Shown here: in pieces, positions 7,335-39,497 of the stretch | How positions within the stretch are numbered: the stretch's first letter is position 1 | How the letters are laid out: every line of letters starts with the position of its first letter | Origin: Escherichia phage Pisces | Length of the DNA: 39,497 bases | Sequence record: MK903277.1 | Direction: 5' to 3' (one strand) | Notes under the pieces: generated by a model | The model's input: the letters and a program-made list of their open reading frames with translations, nothing else | Told to the model about the DNA's origin: nothing | The model's database searches: none | Made by a program: the position numbers and the translations under genes

Positions 7335-8404
7335 TGACTACTACCCTCAAGACCAACCCGCATCGCGCTGTAGATTACTCTGAGTCCGGCGTTAAGAAAG
7401 CACTGGCAGCAGCCGGGTCGCTGGAAGCCGAAGTGAAGTATGACGGTGTGCGCCTGAACCTCCCGGTCCTGCGTGAAGGTGAGACCTACTGGCTGAGCCG
7501 CGAGTCTAAGCCTCTGCCAGCCTTGGAGTGGATGAACTCTGAGTTAGGCAATGCGTGGACACAAGCTGACTGGCGCTGGTTCCTGCGTCAGGCTGGCTAC
7601 GAAGGCGTGGGCCTGATGATTGACGGCGAGGTCATGGTCAAAGGCGTGGACTTCAACACCTCCTCAGGTCTCATCCGAACGAAGTGGCTGAAGCCTAACA
7701 ACGAGGCGTTCGCTGAATGCTATCCGGGCCGTGGCAAGAAGGTCCCGTTCTGGGTCGCCCGGTCCCGACTTCAGGTTGTGGTCTACGGTGTCGTCGACAT
7801 GACGACCATAGCCGACCCGAAAGCCGAAGGTCCTATCCATAGCGTCACCCGCCTTAAGGCCGAAGCTATCGTCCCTCTCCTCCAGAAATACTTCCCGGAA
7901 ATCGACTGGGTTCTGTCTGAGTCACACACGGTCTTTGACCTTGAGTCGCTCAACTCCCTGTACGAAGAGAAGCGTCTGGAAGGACACGAGGGTCTGGTGG
8001 TCAAGGACCCGCTGGGTAACTACAAGCGTGGCAAGAAGTCAGGCATGTGGAAGATGAAGCCTGAGGACACCATCGACGGGACTGTATGTGGCCTCGTGTG
8101 GGGGACTCAGGGTAAGGCCAACGAAGGCAAGGTCATCGGCTTTGAGGTGCTGCTGGAAGATGGCATGGTGGTCAACGCCTGTGGTCTGACCGAGGAGCAG
8201 AAGGATGAGTTCACTAAGACCGTTCTGTCTGGACCGTCGGTCGGTGAGTGGGAAGAGGCGCAACGCACTGGCGAAGTACCGAACCCATACGAAGGATGGC
8301 AGGTCGAAGTCCTCTTCATGGAGCGCTTCCCGGACGGCTCCCTGCGTCACCCAAGTTTCAACCAGTGGCGTGGCACGGAAGACAATCCAACCGTTAAGAG
8401 TTAA
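7334..8404 (+). CDS. ATP-dependent DNA ligase (gene 1.3)
   Basis: Start ATG overlaps gene 1.2 stop (TAATG); KYDGVR adenylation motif; EGHEGLVVKDP, KKSGMWKMKPE and SLRHPSF blocks as in T7 ligase. Confidence 0.9.
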   Translation: MTTTLKTNPHRAVDYSESGVKKALAAAGSLEAEVKYDGVRLNLPVLREGETYWLSRESKPLPALEWMNSELGNAWTQADWRWFLRQAGYEGVGLMIDGEVMVKGVDFNTSSGLIRTKWLKPNNEAFAECYPGRGKKVPFWVARSRLQVVVYGVVDMTTIADPKAEGPIHSVTRLKAEAIVPLLQKYFPEIDWVLSESHTVFDLESLNSLYEEKRLEGHEGLVVKDPLGNYKRGKKSGMWKMKPEDTIDGTVCGLVWGTQGKANEGKVIGFEVLLEDGMVVNACGLTEEQKDEFTKTVLSGPSVGEWEEAQRTGEVPNPYEGWQVEVLFMERFPDGSLRHPSFNQWRGTEDNPTVKS

Positions 8405-32200: not shown

Positions 32201-33195
32201 CGAAAGTCCTGAACGGGACGACGAACTACCTGTTAGACGCCGGACGTCAAGGCTTCTTGTCTGACATCGTGGAACATAGTCTGACTGGCAGTAAGCGTAA
32301 GTTCGATGACCGTTGGTTGAAGACTGCTGGTATCTCCGCTGACCAGTGGAAGGGCATTAAGTCCCTCATCCGTGAGTCGGTGACTCGTGGTCCAGACGGG
32401 AAGTACACCATCAAGGACAAGAAAGCGTTTAGTCAGGACCAAAGGGCTATGGACCTCTGGCGTATGGGTGACACCATCGCTGATGAGACCCTGCTCCGTC
32501 CCCACAAGCTGAGCAACATGGACGCCAAGGCTTATGGTCCGCTGGCGAAGACTGTCTTGCAGTTTAAGAACTTCGTTATCAAGTCTATCAATGGTCGAAC
32601 CATGCGTACCTTCTACAATGCCACCAAGAACAACCGAGCTATGGATGCTGCACTGTCAACGGTTATGTCTATGGGTCTGGCTGGGATGTACTACATGGCT
32701 CAGGCGCACATCAAGGCTTACGCTATGCAGGACGGTCGTGACCGTGAGTACCTGAAGCAAGCCTTGAACCCGACGATGATTGGTTATGCGGCTCTATCTC
32801 GTAGCTCCCACTTGGGTGGACCTCTTGGGGTCGCCAACATTCTGGGTGGTATCGCTGGGTATGAGGACACTAAGTTACTCCGCTCGTCTATCCTCCCGCG
32901 CTCACCTACCGAGAAGCCTGAACGTGCCATTACCTATGGTGCTGCTAAGAGTGACCCGGTGATGAATGTGGTAGGCAACTTCCTTGAGCAGGTCCCGGCT
33001 TTCGGATATGCTGCTAACGTTGGAGCTACGTCCTACAACTTGGCTGGCTACCTGAAGTCAGACACACGCGTGAACGAACGAGACTACATGACCGGGATGT
33101 ATAACACCTTCCGTGAGCTGGTCCCTAACGACCCTATCACCCAGAAGCTGCTGTTAGGCACCTTTGAGGAGCAAGGTATTCACATCAAGAACTAA
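29299..33195 (+). CDS. Internal virion protein D (gene 16), ejection protein
   Basis: 1298 aa; from about residue 200 onward collinear with T7 gp16 (RLEARETARN, VRSPTGMQSGASGK, KGTYVPHVY, YNRRVNGDIAIMAGTGKTTKE, ILTGRARR); N-terminal ~170 aa differ from the T7 transglycosylase domain as I recall it. Confidence 0.9.
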   Translation: MATRGIRNNNIGNIRVSKDQWEGATGDDGSFVTFDTPDSGVRALAKNLMSYGRQGYDSIEKIITRWAPPSENDTQSYINSVVAATGIPATQSIDLSNPDVLASLSEAIGYHETGSRYDPEVYKTGVSRALSGAGGITPKTPPVSANVFDALTEGLKSKPKVALGENLPGVTGMNIEGQAPEAPNESFGEMFYKSTGETLDQRADRSTWFGIGGAAEAEVKNSMVGVAIRAGQTEDSLDVIGDVFNPTRWNNHKWSREELDQIRNAGVLPQYYGVITGGSPQNLTELINLALENQKLDAEKAKAGTGAQLAAGVIGAGVDPLTYVPIAGQVGKGGKLVNKMFTVASQSGALAGASELARTSVAGGDAHVAEAIMGGALFGGGMTAIGDAIGKALGKSTNEFAGPATRLEARETARNVDGQDLSRLPIREGEETFSHQGVKFADVPNEPGSVRLEDGSILIGENPLNPKTRQVFDEVIEPERAAAGVNLGGLTEIGLKLLRSENPEIRGLAADLVRSPTGMQSGASGKIGTTASDVFERLRAVDHRFYNDIDDAVTQALKDPYFQTNFNRDTGAFRQDIYQRVALAIEDGSGNLKAELTPGELKVYDLLKNQFDAKREMMENPAMFGRVDAQSIFPGSRFKGTYVPHVYSNQMKQLFINELGSPEALQEAIKKSWLTSYASRPEVKARVDEALLEANPNLKPEELAAAVDKYANDKAYGISHTDLFERSSVMEENINGLVGLENNNFLEARNLFDSDMSIILPNGQPFNVNSLREWDMDKIVPAYNRRVNGDIAIMAGTGKTTKEMKDTVETMMNRAGDDGKLKGEVATLRDTLKILTGRARRDGADDAAFSTVMRTMTDLSFFAKNAYMGVQNLTEIGGMLARGNVRAMLHGIPMFRDLAFRNKKMGASEIKDLHNVVFGKELDDSIRPSKQDVIDRLRAYSDLSKPVATALGSAKYYTGELAVRSPFTKVLNGTTNYLLDAGRQGFLSDIVEHSLTGSKRKFDDRWLKTAGISADQWKGIKSLIRESVTRGPDGKYTIKDKKAFSQDQRAMDLWRMGDTIADETLLRPHKLSNMDAKAYGPLAKTVLQFKNFVIKSINGRTMRTFYNATKNNRAMDAALSTVMSMGLAGMYYMAQAHIKAYAMQDGRDREYLKQALNPTMIGYAALSRSSHLGGPLGVANILGGIAGYEDTKLLRSSILPRSPTEKPERAITYGAAKSDPVMNVVGNFLEQVPAFGYAANVGATSYNLAGYLKSDTRVNERDYMTGMYNTFRELVPNDPITQKLLLGTFEEQGIHIKN

Positions 33196-33211
33196 ACTAT
33201 CACTATAGGAA
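33194..33211 (+). promoter_or_regulatory. Phage RNAP promoter (phi17-like) with 5' UUCG hairpin
   Basis: TAAACTATCACTATAGGA; transcript 5' end folds GGAGGC-UUCG-GUCUCC (33212-33227). Confidence 0.8.
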
Positions 33212-33254
33212 CGGAGGCTTCGGTCTCCACCTATTTTGAATAACAGGAGGTATA

Positions 33255-35996
33255 ATGGCTAAAACAACTATCACTCAGTTCCCTGCTGGTCAATCGCAGT
33301 ATCGAATTGAGTTCGACTATCTGGCCCGACCTTTCGTCGTCGTAACGTTGGTGAATAGCTCCAACCAGACGCAGAATAAGGTCCTCGTCGTAGGTCGTGA
33401 CTATCGGTTCCTGAGCGCAACGGTCATTGAGATTCTGATTGCTCAGACCGGATTCGACACCCTGCGCATCCACCGTCAGACTGGCACCGACTTGGTGGTA
33501 GACTTCCGTGACGGTTCGGTCCTGACTGCAAACGACCTGACCAACGCTGAACTTCAGGCCATTCATATCGCTGAAGAAGGTCGTGACCAAACGGTTGACC
33601 TTGCGAAGGAGTATGCGGACTCAGCCTTGACGTCAGCAACCAATGCGAAGAACTCTGAGAACGAGGCTCGACGTATCGCTGAAAGTATCAAGACTGCTGG
33701 TCTGATGGGATACATCACCCGCCGCTCGTTTGAATCTGGTATCACAATCCGTGAGTGGAACGAAGCTCTGCTCTGGGAAGCTGACGGTAACTACTATCGT
33801 TGGGATGGTACGCTACCTAAAGTCGTTCCTGCTGGTTCAACTCCAGATTCTGCTGGTGGTGTTGGCAAAGGTAAGTGGCTCTCCGTTGGTGACGCAACGC
33901 TACGCACTGAGATGCTTCGTGGTCGCTTCAAGTTCGAGGGCGCTGAGTCTGTATACTATGTCCCGAACATCAACTTCAACACTTCGGTCGATAACCGCGC
34001 TGCTGCCTATGCGTTTGCCAATAAGATTTATATCCCTCGTGATGTGACCATCCGTGTGAACCTGCTTCCTGATGATGATGTCCGTAAGTTCGTTGGTGAG
34101 GGCAAGCTGATTGTCAAGAACCAGTTCTACGGCGGTGACATGCTGTTTGACGTAGAGAAGGCGACCAATGGTAACAAGCGCTCGGTCAAGTCCGTACTTC
34201 TTGAAGCTGTGCGCTCTCAGTCCTACGCTGACGGTACAATAGGGATTGTGGGTGACTCCATCACAGACGGTGCTTGGGGTAAACAGAACTGGAGTTCCCC
34301 ACCGTTGGATTCTAACCGCAACTTAGCTGCTCCTGTGGACTATAACCACGGGTTAGCTGGAGGCTCCCACTCATGGTGTGCGCATTGGCAGTGGCTAATG
34401 AACATGGTTCAGTCTCGCTGGACTCGTGAGCCTATCTTCCAAGTCTACAATGCGTCCCTCTCTGGGGCCAAGCTGTCAGACGGATGGGGCTACCGTAACT
34501 TTGACCGTGGGTTCTTCGGGAACGTTCGGTATGGCGCTAAGGCCCCTCGTGTCTGTATTCTGGCTATGGGTTGGAATGACTCCAGTCAAGACATGGCGAC
34601 CTACCGCGACCAGATTGATATGTTCGTCCGTAAGGCGTGGGGTTATGGTTGCACCGTTGGTATCGTGACCGTGAACGACAACGACTGGTCCCGCATTGGG
34701 TTCGAGGGTGCGACCAAGCGTCAGATGTGTGAGACCTTGGGTATCGACTACTTCAACTTAGGGCCAGAACTGACAACGATGTCCAACATCAACATGCAGG
34801 GCATGGACTATTACTACGTGAAGAAAGAACCTCAGTACGACACCACACACCCTCAGGAGCTGGGACAGAAGGTAATGGGTGGCTCAATGTTCATGCAGAC
34901 CCTCGGTGAGAAGTACGTTCGCCGTGTGCGTCCGGGTGACATGATTAACACCTCCGTGGTCGAGAACTTCTGGGATGCAGTAACGTACCCTTCGCAGAAT
35001 CACCTCCGTCCTCAGTACGGTAAAGCTGGTGGTACTCCTAAGCTGAACACCCTCGGTTATCTGCCTATGGCTCAGACCGCCGGAGAGAACGTAACGTTCA
35101 ATACCTTCGTGTGGTGCGAAGAAGAGGATATGTCACTGACGGTGATGGAGCCGTGGACTGGTGCTGGTAAAGTGGGAGACAACAACCATCTCCGAGTCTG
35201 GGCACCCGCTGGTCTGGTTCTGGATGAAACCGATGCGAACTACGGTACGCGCAACAAGAAGATTAACGACTACTGTCAATACAACGTTGGCAAACTGGCG
35301 TCAAACTATCTTGGTGGTTCCCGCACACTTACCACGTATGCCGGGCGTCTGCGCAAAGGTCTCAACCAGATTGCAATCGTGAACGGGGGCGCTCTGCCTA
35401 CCTGCTGGTATCCAGCCCTGAAGTTCGGACACATCACGACCGATGGTATCACCATCCCGCTGACCCGTCTGTCCATCTCCCAGTCCTCAGCTCCAGTCCC
35501 GTTCATTGCGGACGGCTACCAGTTTGATGACTACGTGCTGTCTAATGCGTTCTCTGGACGCGCTGGCGCAATGACGACTGATGGTTATATCCGTCAGGGT
35601 ACGGTTGTAGGCCGAGTGTACGTCAAATCTGGCTTTGGCCTGAACACCTATCTGGCACTGAACCTCGACTCCCTGTCTGGTAATGCAATCCTCATCGGGG
35701 TGGCATCCAACGGTCAGATTGCCTGTGGGTCATGGCTGGGCAAGGAGCCGACTGACTGGACTCTTCTGGGAGACATCACGACCAAGGACTTCACGAACGT
35801 GCCGTTCACGGTGTGGGTCTACACCAACGCTAGTGGTCAATACACTTTCTCTATCATCACTGATGATGGACGAGTTGTAGCGAACCCGATTGCCACGACT
35901 GTAGTGACCTCCGGTCGCATCGGTGTATTCAAGCGGACCACTGGTTCCTTCATGGCTCAGATTGAGGCTAACTGGGGCTTCACCAACGTAGGGTAA
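33255..35996 (+). CDS. Tail fibre / tailspike protein (gene 17) with C-terminal SGNH/GDSL-hydrolase-like domain
   Basis: 913 aa; N-terminal ~150 aa match the T7 gp17 particle-binding domain ([39 protein letters not shown]); distal part contains GDSITDG (about 34252), GWNDS (about 34570) and DTTHP (about 34840). Confidence 0.85.
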
Positions 35997-36038
35997 CAAC
36001 TTTGGGTCAAGGACGACCCGTTTAACAATGGAGGTATT

Positions 36039-36233
36039 ATGATTGAGTTCGACTTCAAGAATGAGGTCCTCAAAGCCTCGCCTATCGTCGGGACCGCTGC
36101 GGCTGATGGTGCCAGTCGGTTCTTCTTTGGGTTAACACTCAACGAATGGTTCTACGTCGCTGCTATCGCGTACACCGTGGTGCAGATTGGCGTCCTAATT
36201 TACAAGACGATTAAGAGCGGAGGTAAGACATGA
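36039..36233 (+). CDS. Holin (gene 17.5)
   Basis: 64 aa; PIVGT..AD...R.FFGL.LNEWFYVAAIAYTVVQIG nearly identical to T7 gp17.5. Confidence 0.9.
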   Translation: MIEFDFKNEVLKASPIVGTAAADGASRFFFGLTLNEWFYVAAIAYTVVQIGVLIYKTIKSGGKT

Positions 36234-36545: not shown

Positions 36546-36594
36546 ACTACGAGCGGCGACGCTACGTGGATTCTGAGAAATGAGGAGGGCAACT

Positions 36595-37044
36595 ATGCTC
36601 GAACTTTTACGTAGATGCGCCCCTTGGCTGGTGGCAGGACTCATGTTCTGCTCAGGTTACTGGGTGGCAGACAATAAGTGGGAGGCGAAAGTAAGCAATG
36701 AGTACATCACGAAACTTGAGGCACGAGAGAATCAACGGGCTGCTGTCCAAGGTGAAATCGACAAAGTGTCAGCCGAGTGGCAAGACAAGATGTCCGCGCT
36801 GGAAGGCTCTACTGATAGGATTATTGCTGACCTTAACCGCGATAACAAGCGGCTGCGCATCCGTGTCAAACCCACCAGTGGAACAGTCCAGACTGACGGT
36901 CGATGCGTCATTGATGGTTACGCCGAACTTGACGAACGAGATGCTAAGCGTCTTATCGCCATCGGACTGAAAGGTGACGAATGGATTAAGGCCCTCCAGA
37001 AGACCGTGAGAGCCATGCAGCAAGAGAAGGAGGTGAAACCTTGA
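36595..37044 (+). CDS. Rz-like i-spanin (gene 18.5)
   Basis: Start ATG 36595 with SD GAGGAGGG; N-terminal TM helix [13 protein letters not shown]; [26 protein letters not shown] parallels T7 gp18.5. Confidence 0.85.
36698..36970 (+). CDS. Rz1-like o-spanin lipoprotein (gene 18.7), embedded in a different frame within the i-spanin gene
   Basis: MSTSR...[23 protein letters not shown] has a lipobox; C-terminal [15 protein letters not shown] matches T7 gp18.7 SLMVEPNLTTEMLNV. Confidence 0.85.
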   Translation: MSTSRNLRHERINGLLSKVKSTKCQPSGKTRCPRWKALLIGLLLTLTAITSGCASVSNPPVEQSRLTVDASLMVTPNLTNEMLSVLSPSD

Positions 37045-38919: not shown

Positions 38920-39097
38920 AGACCCCCGGTTACTTATAGTAAAGACTCAATGAATAAGCATATGCACACTTTATGCAAGACCTTAGGAGGCAGACTCCTG
39001 AGTTCTTACCTAAGGTTCGCACCGATAGAGGAGGGTGATAATAATCATAATCCCTCCATAACTTAAAGTAGACCATCGCTGACAGGAGGTATGTAGC

Positions 39098-39256
39098 ATG
39101 GGTAAGACCAAAGCTGTTCTCAAAGCTCTGGCGACCAATAGAGCTACGTACAGGTTTCTTGCTGCTGTTCTACTTGCTGCTGGCGTTACTGCTGGAAGTC
39201 AGTGGGTCGGGTGGGTCGAGACTCTCGTATGTACTCTGGTGTCTGAGTGTCATTAA
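39098..39256 (+). CDS. Gene 19.5-like small membrane protein (52 aa)
   Basis: Not in the ORF track; SD AGGAGG 7 nt upstream; two hydrophobic stretches (FLAAVLLAAGVTAG, WVGWVETLVCTLV). Confidence 0.4.
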   Translation: MGKTKAVLKALATNRATYRFLAAVLLAAGVTAGSQWVGWVETLVCTLVSECH

Positions 39257-39299
39257 CGCCATAATGGTAACAATCAACGAGCGTAAGACCTAAGGTCAG

Positions 39300-39497
39300 T
39301 ACGTGGGATAAACCCTCCACTCTACTGACCTTAGCTACTGTAGTCAAGGACTTTAGGTAACACCTTAATAGAAGCTCACTTAGGGTCTATCCACTTATGG
39401 TCTCACCCTAGTGTCGCCTGACCTACGGTCCTTGACCTACAGTGGCTGAGGCCTACAGTAGAGACGATGAGTTTTGGACCAAAAGTTCGAGAGTCCA
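39300..39497 (+). repeat. Right-end region with CCTACRGT-type short repeats
   Basis: GACCTACGGTCC (also at 289-300), CCTACAGT x3; resembles the left-end repeat family, but no copy of the left-end TCTCACAG block. Confidence 0.4.

Follow-up and report, generated by a model that had tools for sequence, protein, structure and literature searches.

The tailspike of Escherichia phage Pisces very probably combines a T7-type tail anchor with a module like that of gp63.1 of phage G7C, which is predicted, by analogy with gp63.1, to deacetylate the O-antigen of Escherichia coli 4s. The window analyzed was the whole Pisces genome. Pisces is a Kayfunavirus isolated on E. coli 4s, with a published genome of 39,497 bp and a G+C content of 53.2% (PMC6763662). 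The window agrees with both values and includes the two PCR primers published for Pisces. The first-pass annotation of this genome had read the gene as a tail fiber replaced by a tailspike with an SGNH/GDSL hydrolase, most likely a deacetylase of an O-antigen or capsule. That interpretation is supported as a whole, with the esterase activity of the Pisces protein standing as a prediction by analogy. What it missed is the family to which the spike belongs, a type that has already been solved structurally and characterized.

Tailspike gene and its surroundings

The open reading frame had been delimited exactly in the first-pass annotation (Table 1), and an exact-sequence look-up showed its product to be identical to QEG09597.1, annotated as "tail spike" of Escherichia phage Pisces. 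The protein also matched PHROG 21878, "tail fiber protein" (E=5e-217). Genes for the holin, small terminase, spanins, and large terminase lie downstream. The promoter-like 23-mer ahead of the gene shares bases with the stop codon that ends the preceding gp16-like gene, has its predicted +1 at G33208, and resembles the T7 consensus, TAATACGACTCACTATAGGGAGA. Its 14-mer core, AACTATCACTATAG, is present in seven copies on the + strand of the window (6798, 17675, 20495, 21460, 25908, 33195, and 38903).

Table 1. Features of the Pisces tailspike gene and its borders (positions in the window; residues are those of the 913-aa product)
Feature	Position	Strand	Residues	Basis or remark
Phage-RNA-polymerase promoter-like 23-mer, ACTAAACTATCACTATAGGAACG	33191..33213	+		Position of T7 phi17; putative function
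Shine-Dalgarno sequence AGGAGGT	33245..33251	+		Ends 3 nt upstream of ATG; read from sequence
Tailspike gene (gene 17 position)	33255..35996	+	1-913	ATG start; ORF list
T7 gp17-type tail-attachment adaptor, then short helical neck	33255..33704	+	1-150	PF03906
Tailspike N-terminal domain common to CBA120 TSPs and G7C	33723..33893	+	157-213	PF18668, E=4.6e-21
G7C "domain 3" neck	33960..34154	+	236-300	PF21562, E=4.1e-28
SGNH esterase domain (predicted)	34155..34970	+	301-572	AF2 model, Foldseek
SGNH block I, GDSITDG	34251..34271	+	333-339	Predicted nucleophile Ser335
SGNH block II, NASLSG	34449..34466	+	399-404	Predicted oxyanion Gly404
SGNH block III, GWNDS	34569..34583	+	439-443	Asn441
SGNH block V, DTTHP	34839..34853	+	529-533	Asp529 and His532
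Galactose-binding-like (CBM-like) domain	34971..35429	+	573-725	PF21988 G7C_GBD, E=4.2e-39
Second CBM-like, C-terminal domain	35442..35966	+	730-904	PF22245 G7C_C, E=5.1e-26
Spacer with small hairpin GGGTC-N6-GACCC	35997..36038	+		Conserved with Penshu1 and SKA64; right junction versus IMM-002

No second fiber or spike gene flanking or following the tailspike gene was found in the ORF list of the genome. Judged jointly with the explanation as a whole, it is highly probable that the tailspike is the sole receptor-binding protein of Pisces. A branched two-protein receptor complex such as those of G7C and KP32 was considered and rejected because the second spike gene is absent.

No direct repeat of at least 60 bp was present in the window, and its two terminal 500-base segments have nothing in common. 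The published terminal repeat is 190 bp long, and the deposited sequence apparently has one copy of it.

N-terminal anchor and neck

The T7 gp17 docking domain that had been proposed for the N terminus was recovered as PF03906 at residues 13-124 (E=1.2e-16), and the T7 gp17 chains 7boz, 8dsp, and 8e4g in the PDB matched residues 3-119. Chain 7boz is full-length gp17 (553 aa), and its match is confined to residues 3-118; therefore, the remaining ∼790 residues of the Pisces protein bear no relation to the shaft and tip of the T7 fiber, as had also been claimed. Over residues 1-150, the tailspike of phage Penshu1 is 84% identical, and neither G7C gp63.1 nor the tail spike of phage SKA64 shows real similarity.

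The G7C "domain 3" neck is the best-conserved segment of the spike. Residues 221-300 are 99% identical to Penshu1 and likewise to SKA64, and in this region the DNA is also ∼90% identical, over codons 201-280 for Penshu1 and codons 241-280 for SKA64. Two spikes in the PDB, 9VVR and 9LNA, closely match the Pisces tailspike over the first ∼220 residues; a literature search by these two PDB codes returned no relevant paper.

Predicted SGNH esterase domain

The distal part of the spike (residues 153-913) is homologous to G7C gp63.1 (PDB 4QNL) at E=3e-246. In the first-pass annotation, an SGNH hydrolase had been recognized there from blocks I, III, and V, which are indeed present in the correct order, and block II was overlooked. 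Block II resembles that of E. coli TesA (NASISG). The predicted catalytic triad, read from these blocks, is Ser335-Asp529-His532, with Gly404 and Asn441 as predicted oxyanion residues. Among 35 homologues with identities down to 32%, G333, D334, S335, N399, G439, N441, D442, D529, and H532 were invariant, and G404 was conserved in at least 90%, which argues that the motif set did not arise by chance. When the window was translated in all six frames, the pattern GDS..GxND..DxxH turned up once, in the tailspike ORF. In our own alignment with G7C gp63.1, Pisces Ser335, Asn441, Asp529, and His532 correspond to S276, N382, D470, and H473. A sliding comparison with G7C gave 90% identity for codons 401-440, which cover blocks II and III, and 82% for codons 441-480, versus 35-50% in most other windows.

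Profile searches and structure prediction had been suggested as ways to examine the domain. The Pfam match that had been looked for did not materialize, as both generic GDSL models scored below their gathering cut-offs (PF00657, 20.5 bits versus 23.6; PF13472, 18.4 versus 32.9). A search of the PDB sequences with a family profile of the domain returned no further SGNH enzyme at significance (best E, 0.3 to 0.7), with the weak local alignments lying on blocks I, III, and V, and an NCBIfam search of the tailspike gave zero matches. The missed Pfam cut-offs reflect a limit of sequence sensitivity and do not concern a defining feature of the SGNH superfamily. Membership in the superfamily thus rests on the homology to 4QNL and on the fold search.

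Structure prediction bore the assignment out. The AlphaFold2 model of residues 301-575 (pLDDT, 86.2; pTM, 0.86) superposed on 4QNL, its top Foldseek match, with a TM score of 0.93 and an rmsd of 2.0 Å at 65% identity. Among the 49 Foldseek matches in the PDB at E≤1e-3, those after 4QNL were chiefly SGNH/GDSL proteins (TesA, EstA, rhamnogalacturonan acetylesterase [RGAE], CE2, PAF acetylhydrolase [PAF-AH], and PatB/OatA), and E values for the classic SGNH hydrolases ranged from 4e-7 to 1e-3; the remainder comprised further tail proteins of phages and a small number of designed scaffolds. The modeled domain has the three-layer alpha/beta/alpha fold with a parallel sheet that the SGNH superfamily requires, and the closeness of its superposition on 4QNL implies that the Ser, His, and Asp of the model would lie within hydrogen-bonding distance.

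CBM-like domains

Both domains that follow the esterase domain are more divergent. Identities over residues 573-725 are 48% to G7C, 69% to Penshu1, and 75% to SKA64, and those over residues 730-904, the most divergent part of the spike, are 35%, 50%, and 70%, respectively. An LPS-binding role has been described for the galactose-binding-like domain of G7C gp63.1 (PMC13082707), and by analogy residues 573-725 are a probable O-antigen binding module. The two CBM-like domains probably set substrate specificity. Since they are just 48% and 35% identical to their G7C counterparts, the exact acetyl group or its sugar context could differ between the two phages.

Exchange of the receptor-binding cassette

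In a comparison with IMM-002, the nearest relative, DNA similarity ends after position 33626 and resumes at 35994, beside the stop codon, with one weak patch of 68% (33783-33904) inside the otherwise dissimilar stretch. This cassette-like replacement fits the earlier suggestion that the spike defines host range, and the spike probably does set the host range of Pisces. Homology to both G7C and SKA64 begins at residues 157-213, which places the left recombination junction there; at the DNA level, homology to SKA64 begins at 33829. This homology does not stop at the end of the spike gene but reaches into the T7-type holin gene, which indicates a Kayfunavirus origin of the cassette. The esterase cassette was found on T7-type anchors, on CBA120/G7C-type anchors (PF18668 only), and on P22-type anchors (PF09008), as well as in the Phapecoctavirus SKA64. 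Folding of the hairpin after the stop codon was no better than that of shuffled sequences (z = -0.74), and the same was true of a hairpin just after the promoter-like site (z = -1.45); hence, neither an RNA element nor a terminator is claimed.

Proposed role in infection and alternatives

Secondary accounts of work on G7C (Prokhorov 2017, via PMC10743462, PMC6393563, and PMC13123978) describe gp63.1 as an esterase of the SGNH type whose reported activity is deacetylation of the E. coli 4s O-antigen, report this deacetylation as essential for G7C infection, and state that acetylation-deficient wclK mutants resist G7C. A deacetylase of an O-antigen or capsule had been predicted for Pisces, which comes from the same host as G7C, and the homology to gp63.1 is consistent with that prediction. 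In the mechanism proposed here, the spike, presumed to be trimeric, would dock straight onto the T7-type tail by its first ∼150 residues, and residues ∼153-913 would form the gp63.1-type module, in which a conserved neck is followed by the SGNH esterase domain and a pair of CBM-like domains. This pair, together with the esterase cleft, would hold the O-polysaccharide of E. coli 4s, which is O22-like and O-acetylated. His532 and Asp529 would activate Ser335, and the oxyanion hole would consist of Gly404 and Asn441; Ser335 would then hydrolyze the lateral O-acetyl ester and spare the backbone of the glycan. Cycles of binding and deacetylation could bring the virion across the O-antigen layer as far as the outer membrane, the site at which T7-type ejection would be triggered. 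We infer the activity of the Pisces spike, the identity of its substrate with the acetyl group removed by gp63.1, processive action, and the trimeric form. In gp63.1, a substrate groove between subunits has been described.

It is conceivable, yet unlikely, that the spike acts as an SGNH esterase on a substrate other than that of gp63.1, such as an O-acetyl group in a different position or sugar context, or one on capsule, colanic acid, or ECA. The identities to G7C would allow for this (48% and 35% in the CBM-like domains against 64% in the SGNH domain), and SGNH spikes directed at other O-antigens or capsules are known from Pectobacterium phages Possum and PP99, Klebsiella prophages, and Acinetobacter phage Aristophanes. 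In addition, the host of SKA64, the closest relative (82% over the distal 613 aa), is an avian pathogenic E. coli. However, Pisces, Penshu1, and G7C all come from one isolation strain, E. coli 4s, whose O-unit has a single O-acetyl group (PMC6393563), and receptor-binding proteins with at least 30% identity keep serogroup specificity (PMC10408124).

Two further readings concern the enzyme itself. The subthreshold scores of the generic GDSL models might suggest an SGNH domain that lacks catalytic activity and is used solely for glycan binding, but all four catalytic blocks are intact, their key residues are conserved across the homologues as described above, the codons around blocks II and III are among the best conserved versus G7C, and the domain is 64% identical to that of gp63.1, which is reported to be active. 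A dead enzyme is thus very improbable. The structural neighbors that come next after 4QNL, TesA (thioesterase I/lysophospholipase L1) and EstA, could point to a lipase or lysophospholipase acting on lipids of the outer membrane or on the acyl chains of lipid A. This is scarcely credible: the TesA and EstA matches, at 13-18% identity and a TM score of about 0.5, reflect a common fold only, two carbohydrate-binding-like domains adjoin the SGNH domain, and the 64%-identical homologue is reported to be an O-antigen deacetylase that spares the polysaccharide backbone. A spike of the gp63.1 type, with a T7-type anchor and predicted deacetylase activity on the 4s O-antigen, is the preferred explanation.

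Spikes that join a T7-type anchor to an SGNH domain have already been published, so Pisces adds little novelty, and current understanding is unchanged by it. It does provide an esterase module on a T7-type anchor that lacks a branched adaptor, a third diverged esterase spike for one well-characterized host strain, which helps in mapping specificity residues, and a clear case of receptor-binding module exchange between phage families, which bears on host-range engineering. Predicted routes to resistance are loss of the O-antigen or mere loss of its O-acetylation (wclK type), as reported for G7C. On the E. coli 4s panel, G7C grows on the wild type and on 4sGTR and fails on 4sI (wclK-, nonacetylated O-antigen) and on the rough 4sR. 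A more far-reaching possibility, which we regard as doubtful, is that Pisces is a minimal natural case in which a nondepolymerizing deacetylase spike joined straight to a T7-type tail, with neither a gp66-like partner for signal transmission nor another receptor-binding protein, suffices for O-antigen penetration and for triggering DNA ejection. If so, signal transmission by gp66, proposed as required in G7C, would not be general, and "processive deacetylation as molecular motor" would be testable in a genetically tractable T7-like phage with the three diverged spikes of Pisces, Penshu1, and G7C on one host.

Comparison with known systems

A close, characterized counterpart is gp63.1 of G7C (Gamaleyavirus, N4-like). 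The order of PF18668, domain 3, SGNH domain, and two CBM-like domains is the same, with Pfam matches above cut-offs, the catalytic residues are identical, and both phages come from E. coli 4s. Identity to gp63.1 declines along the Pisces spike: the neck (66%) and the SGNH domain (64%) are followed by the first CBM-like domain at 48% and the C terminus at 35%. The N terminus of gp63.1 binds gp66, whereas Pisces has the T7 gp17 adaptor instead, and thus its spike is of the gp63.1 type by its catalytic module and not by its attachment. As Pisces is without a gp66-like partner, the spike appears to be unbranched and seated directly on the tail. A literature search found no paper linking Pisces with G7C.

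The tail fiber of Penshu1 (QEG09817.1; 913 aa), also a Kayfunavirus, shares architecture, gene position, and the host E. coli 4s with Pisces, and has already been placed in the G7C gp63.1 "4s/O22" receptor-binding subtype (PMC10408124). Its identity to Pisces is 73% overall, 65% over the distal 613 aa, 73% in the SGNH domain, and 50% in the C-terminal domain. The Penshu1 protein is annotated just as "tail fiber," and the Pisces protein as "tail spike."

In the phage collection, the nearest relative of the distal module was the tail spike of SKA64 (UKM17348.1), a 152-kb Phapecoctavirus myovirus, with an SGNH domain 93% identical to that of Pisces and an N-terminal anchor of another kind, one that fits the baseplate of a myovirus. 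The SKA64 cassette retains a fragment of a T7-type holin gene. The authors of the SKA64 study named Pisces and Penshu1 as its nearest homologues (PMC10282059).

The Pectobacterium Studiervirinae Q19, PP47, PP81, PPWS4, MA6, and MA1A have, like Pisces, a T7-like N-terminal domain joined to a G7C-like SGNH hydrolase domain, with the spike locus between gp16 and holin as in Pisces, and horizontal transfer has been proposed for it; they differ in host genus and in a likeness to gp63.1 that is remote, at the level of HHpred (PMC7693777). Their spikes were absent among the tblastn matches for the Pisces distal region.

The enzyme on the tailspike of the Kayfunavirus K1F is a glycosidase that depolymerizes the K1 capsule, whereas that of Pisces is predicted to strip off acetyl groups and leave the chain whole. 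The two spikes are alike in plan: the K1F endosialidase tailspike, described in part in PMC10408124, also combines a T7 gp17-type adaptor with an enzymatic receptor-binding domain directed at a surface polysaccharide.

A T7-type anchor joined to a G7C-type distal module

The ORF at 33255..35996 (+) encodes a 913-aa product with an ATG start that matched QEG09597.1, "tail spike [Escherichia phage Pisces]," at 100% of residues in an exact-sequence look-up. The first-pass annotation had proposed a docking domain like that of T7 gp17 followed by an unrelated distal part, and this was borne out: the N-terminus matched the T7 tail-fiber N-terminal domain, and 7boz, the PDB chain of full-length T7 gp17, could be aligned with spike residues 3-118 only, which indicates that the anchor is T7-like and the remainder is not. 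Four Pfam families built on the spike of phage G7C (gp63.1) matched above their cutoffs, in the order found in G7C. Residues 153-913 matched the gp63.1 crystal structure (PDB 4QNL; E=3e-246), and the spike also matched PHROG 21878 (E=5e-217).

Features of the Pisces tailspike gene (window positions, nt) and protein (residues, aa)
Feature	Location	Basis or remark
T7-type-promoter-like 23-mer ACTAAACTATCACTATAGGAACG	nt 33191-33213 (+)	overlaps gp16 stop codon
Shine-Dalgarno AGGAGGT	nt 33245-33251 (+)	read from sequence
T7 tail-fiber N-terminal domain, PF03906	aa 13-124	Pfam, E=1.2e-16
PF18668	aa 157-213	Pfam
Neck, PF21562 "G7C domain 3"	aa 236-300	Pfam
Esterase domain	aa 301-572	between neck and first CBM-like domain
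Block I, GDSITDG	aa 333-339	
Block II, NASLSG	aa 399-404	
Block III, GWNDS	aa 439-443	
Block V, DTTHP	aa 529-533	
First CBM-like domain, PF21988 "G7C galactose-binding-like domain"	aa 573-725	Pfam
PF22245 "G7C C-terminal domain"	aa 730-904	Pfam

The first ~220 residues (window 33255-33914) are very similar in two recent PDB entries with other distal domains: the 843-aa "tail spike protein" 9VVR (E=5e-107) and the 832-aa "tail fibers protein" 9LNA (E=2e-77). Because these entries share this stretch and differ distally, the unit of anchor and PF18668 is a common platform for the grafting of different receptor-binding modules.

SGNH motifs and predicted fold of the esterase domain

The motifs previously read as SGNH blocks I, III, and V were all in place; block II had been missing from that list. 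When the window was translated in all six frames, the combined motif pattern occurred a single time. Among 35 homologues, with identity down to 32%, G333, D334, S335, N399, G439, N441, D442, D529, and H532 were invariant and G404 was at least 90% conserved; the conserved catalytic-block residues align with G7C S276, N340, G345, N382, D383, D470, and H473. Generic Pfam GDSL models scored below their cutoffs (PF00657, 20.5 versus 23.6 bits; PF13472, 18.4 versus 32.9), an NCBIfam search of the spike gave no match, and a family profile of the esterase domain found no other SGNH protein in PDB at a significant E value. The SGNH fold was clear in the predicted structure of residues 301-575, which AlphaFold2 modeled from 35 homologues (pLDDT, 86; pTM, 0.86). 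A fold search with this model gave 49 matches at E≤1e-3, led by 4QNL (TM, 0.93; rmsd, 2.0 Å; 65% identity) and followed by TesA, EstA, thioesterase I, rhamnogalacturonan acetylesterase, CE2 carbohydrate esterases, PAF acetylhydrolase, and PatB/OatA O-acetyltransferases.

Predicted function and substrate

According to secondary sources, gp63.1 is a deacetylase (esterase): it strips the lateral O-acetyl from the O22-like O-antigen of E. coli 4s without cutting the backbone. Deacetylation is reported there to be essential for G7C infection and apparently processive, with full resistance to G7C in rough and acetylation-deficient wclK mutants (PMC10743462; PMC6393563; PMC13123978). E. coli 4s was the isolation host of Pisces (PMC6763662), as well as of G7C and the sister Kayfunavirus Penshu1, and the Penshu1 protein has already been placed with gp63.1 in the "4s/O22" receptor-binding subtype (PMC10408124). 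Given this shared host and grouping, the best explanation is that the Pisces spike would be an active O-antigen acetylesterase on the same O-antigen as gp63.1; the earlier prediction of an O-antigen or capsule deacetylase thus appears correct by homology. We infer its activity, substrate, processivity, and trimer formation.

A crystal structure, family-specific Pfam models, and published biochemical work are already available for the gp63.1 family. Other Autographiviridae and Schitoviridae are likewise known to carry SGNH deacetylase spikes, and a "T7-like N-domain plus G7C-like SGNH domain" has been published for Pectobacterium Studiervirinae (PMC7693777). The spike is not discussed in the Pisces genome announcement (PMC6763662), and none of the papers searched linked Pisces with G7C. 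The Pisces spike adds a member to these already known gp63.1-type spikes.

Genome setting and expression signals

The 39,497-bp window has a G+C content of 53.2%, and the two PCR primers published for Pisces (PMC6763662) are both present in it. Its backbone is 94% identical to Kayfunavirus IMM-002 across 90% of the first 24 kb. The 23-mer upstream of the spike gene resembles a T7-type promoter. The 14-nt core, AACTATCACTATAG(G), occurs seven times on the + strand of the whole genome (6798, 17675, 20495, 21460, 25908, 33195, and 38903), and these copies are presumably phage RNA polymerase promoters; the extended version, ACTAAACTATCACT, is found at five sites (3259, 9385, 17671, 21456, and 33191). 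Hairpins 3' of the promoter-like site and 3' of the spike stop codon were not better than shuffled sequence.

Direct terminal repeats of 190 bp are described in the Pisces paper (PMC6763662). The window contains no direct repeats of at least 60 bp, its ends (1-500 versus 38998-39497) share no similarity, and the deposited sequence seems to hold a single copy of the terminal repeat. A 90-aa ORF (36698-36970) nested out of frame inside the 154-aa Rz-like gene (36580-37044) fits the embedded o-spanin/i-spanin pair mentioned for Pisces (PMC6763662).

Cassette exchange and distribution

DNA similarity between Pisces and IMM-002 (89%) was lost after window position 33626 and, except for one weak patch (68%) at 33783-33904 within the otherwise dissimilar stretch, returned at 35994, beside the spike stop codon, at 93%. 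Exchange relative to IMM-002 is confined to the receptor-binding part. In public protein collections the module is carried on several anchor types: T7-type (PF03906; P0001, P0002, P0005, and P0008), P22 head-binding (PF09008; P0010, P0012, and P0028), and PF18668 only, the last in proteins encoded by many Enterobacter, Proteus, and Providencia genomes. Its presence on P22 head-binding anchors agrees with the requirement of P22-related phage Hf4s for O-acetylation on E. coli 4s. Six more near-identical spike proteins are encoded in metagenomic contigs of ~32-41 kb.

Of the phages in a 50,697-record collection, only SKA64, Penshu1, and G7C had full-length relatives. DNA homology between Pisces and SKA64, a 152-kb Phapecoctavirus myovirus (OM362897.1), extends beyond the spike stop, across the spacer, and into the gene for the T7-type class II holin (Pisces 35997-36193; SKA64 7839-8041). 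The first ~54 residues of the 114-aa SKA64 ORF 3' of the spike share 85% identity with the Pisces holin, with divergence thereafter. From this homology and the holin-like start of the SKA64 ORF, the spike cassette seems to have passed from a Kayfunavirus to SKA64 along with a holin gene fragment.

The neck is near-invariant among Pisces, Penshu1, and SKA64, with 99% protein identity over residues 221-300. Within this region (window 33855-34154, codons 201-300), DNA identity is ~90% to Penshu1 at codons 201-280 and to SKA64 at codons 241-280. Third codon positions there are 69-78% identical, which is above the level in most other windows compared; protein identity falls to 65-75% in the flanks. 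Neck conservation may stem from constraint on the structure, from a recombination hotspot that the phages share, or from both. Conserved DNA motifs have been reported where the anchor domains of receptor-binding proteins end (PMC10408124).

Comparison with G7C gp63.1

A T7 anchor stands in Pisces in place of the gp66-binding N-terminus of gp63.1. The spike gene is followed by genes for holin, small terminase, spanins, and large terminase, which indicates that Pisces, unlike G7C, has neither a second spike nor a branched complex. Identity between the two proteins drops along their length (neck, 66%; SGNH domain, 64%; first CBM-like domain, 48%; last domain, 35%). Pisces Arg480, conserved in all four proteins compared, is the counterpart of G7C Arg421, and a shift in host specificity has been reported for the G7C substitution R421P (bioRxiv 10.1101/542787).
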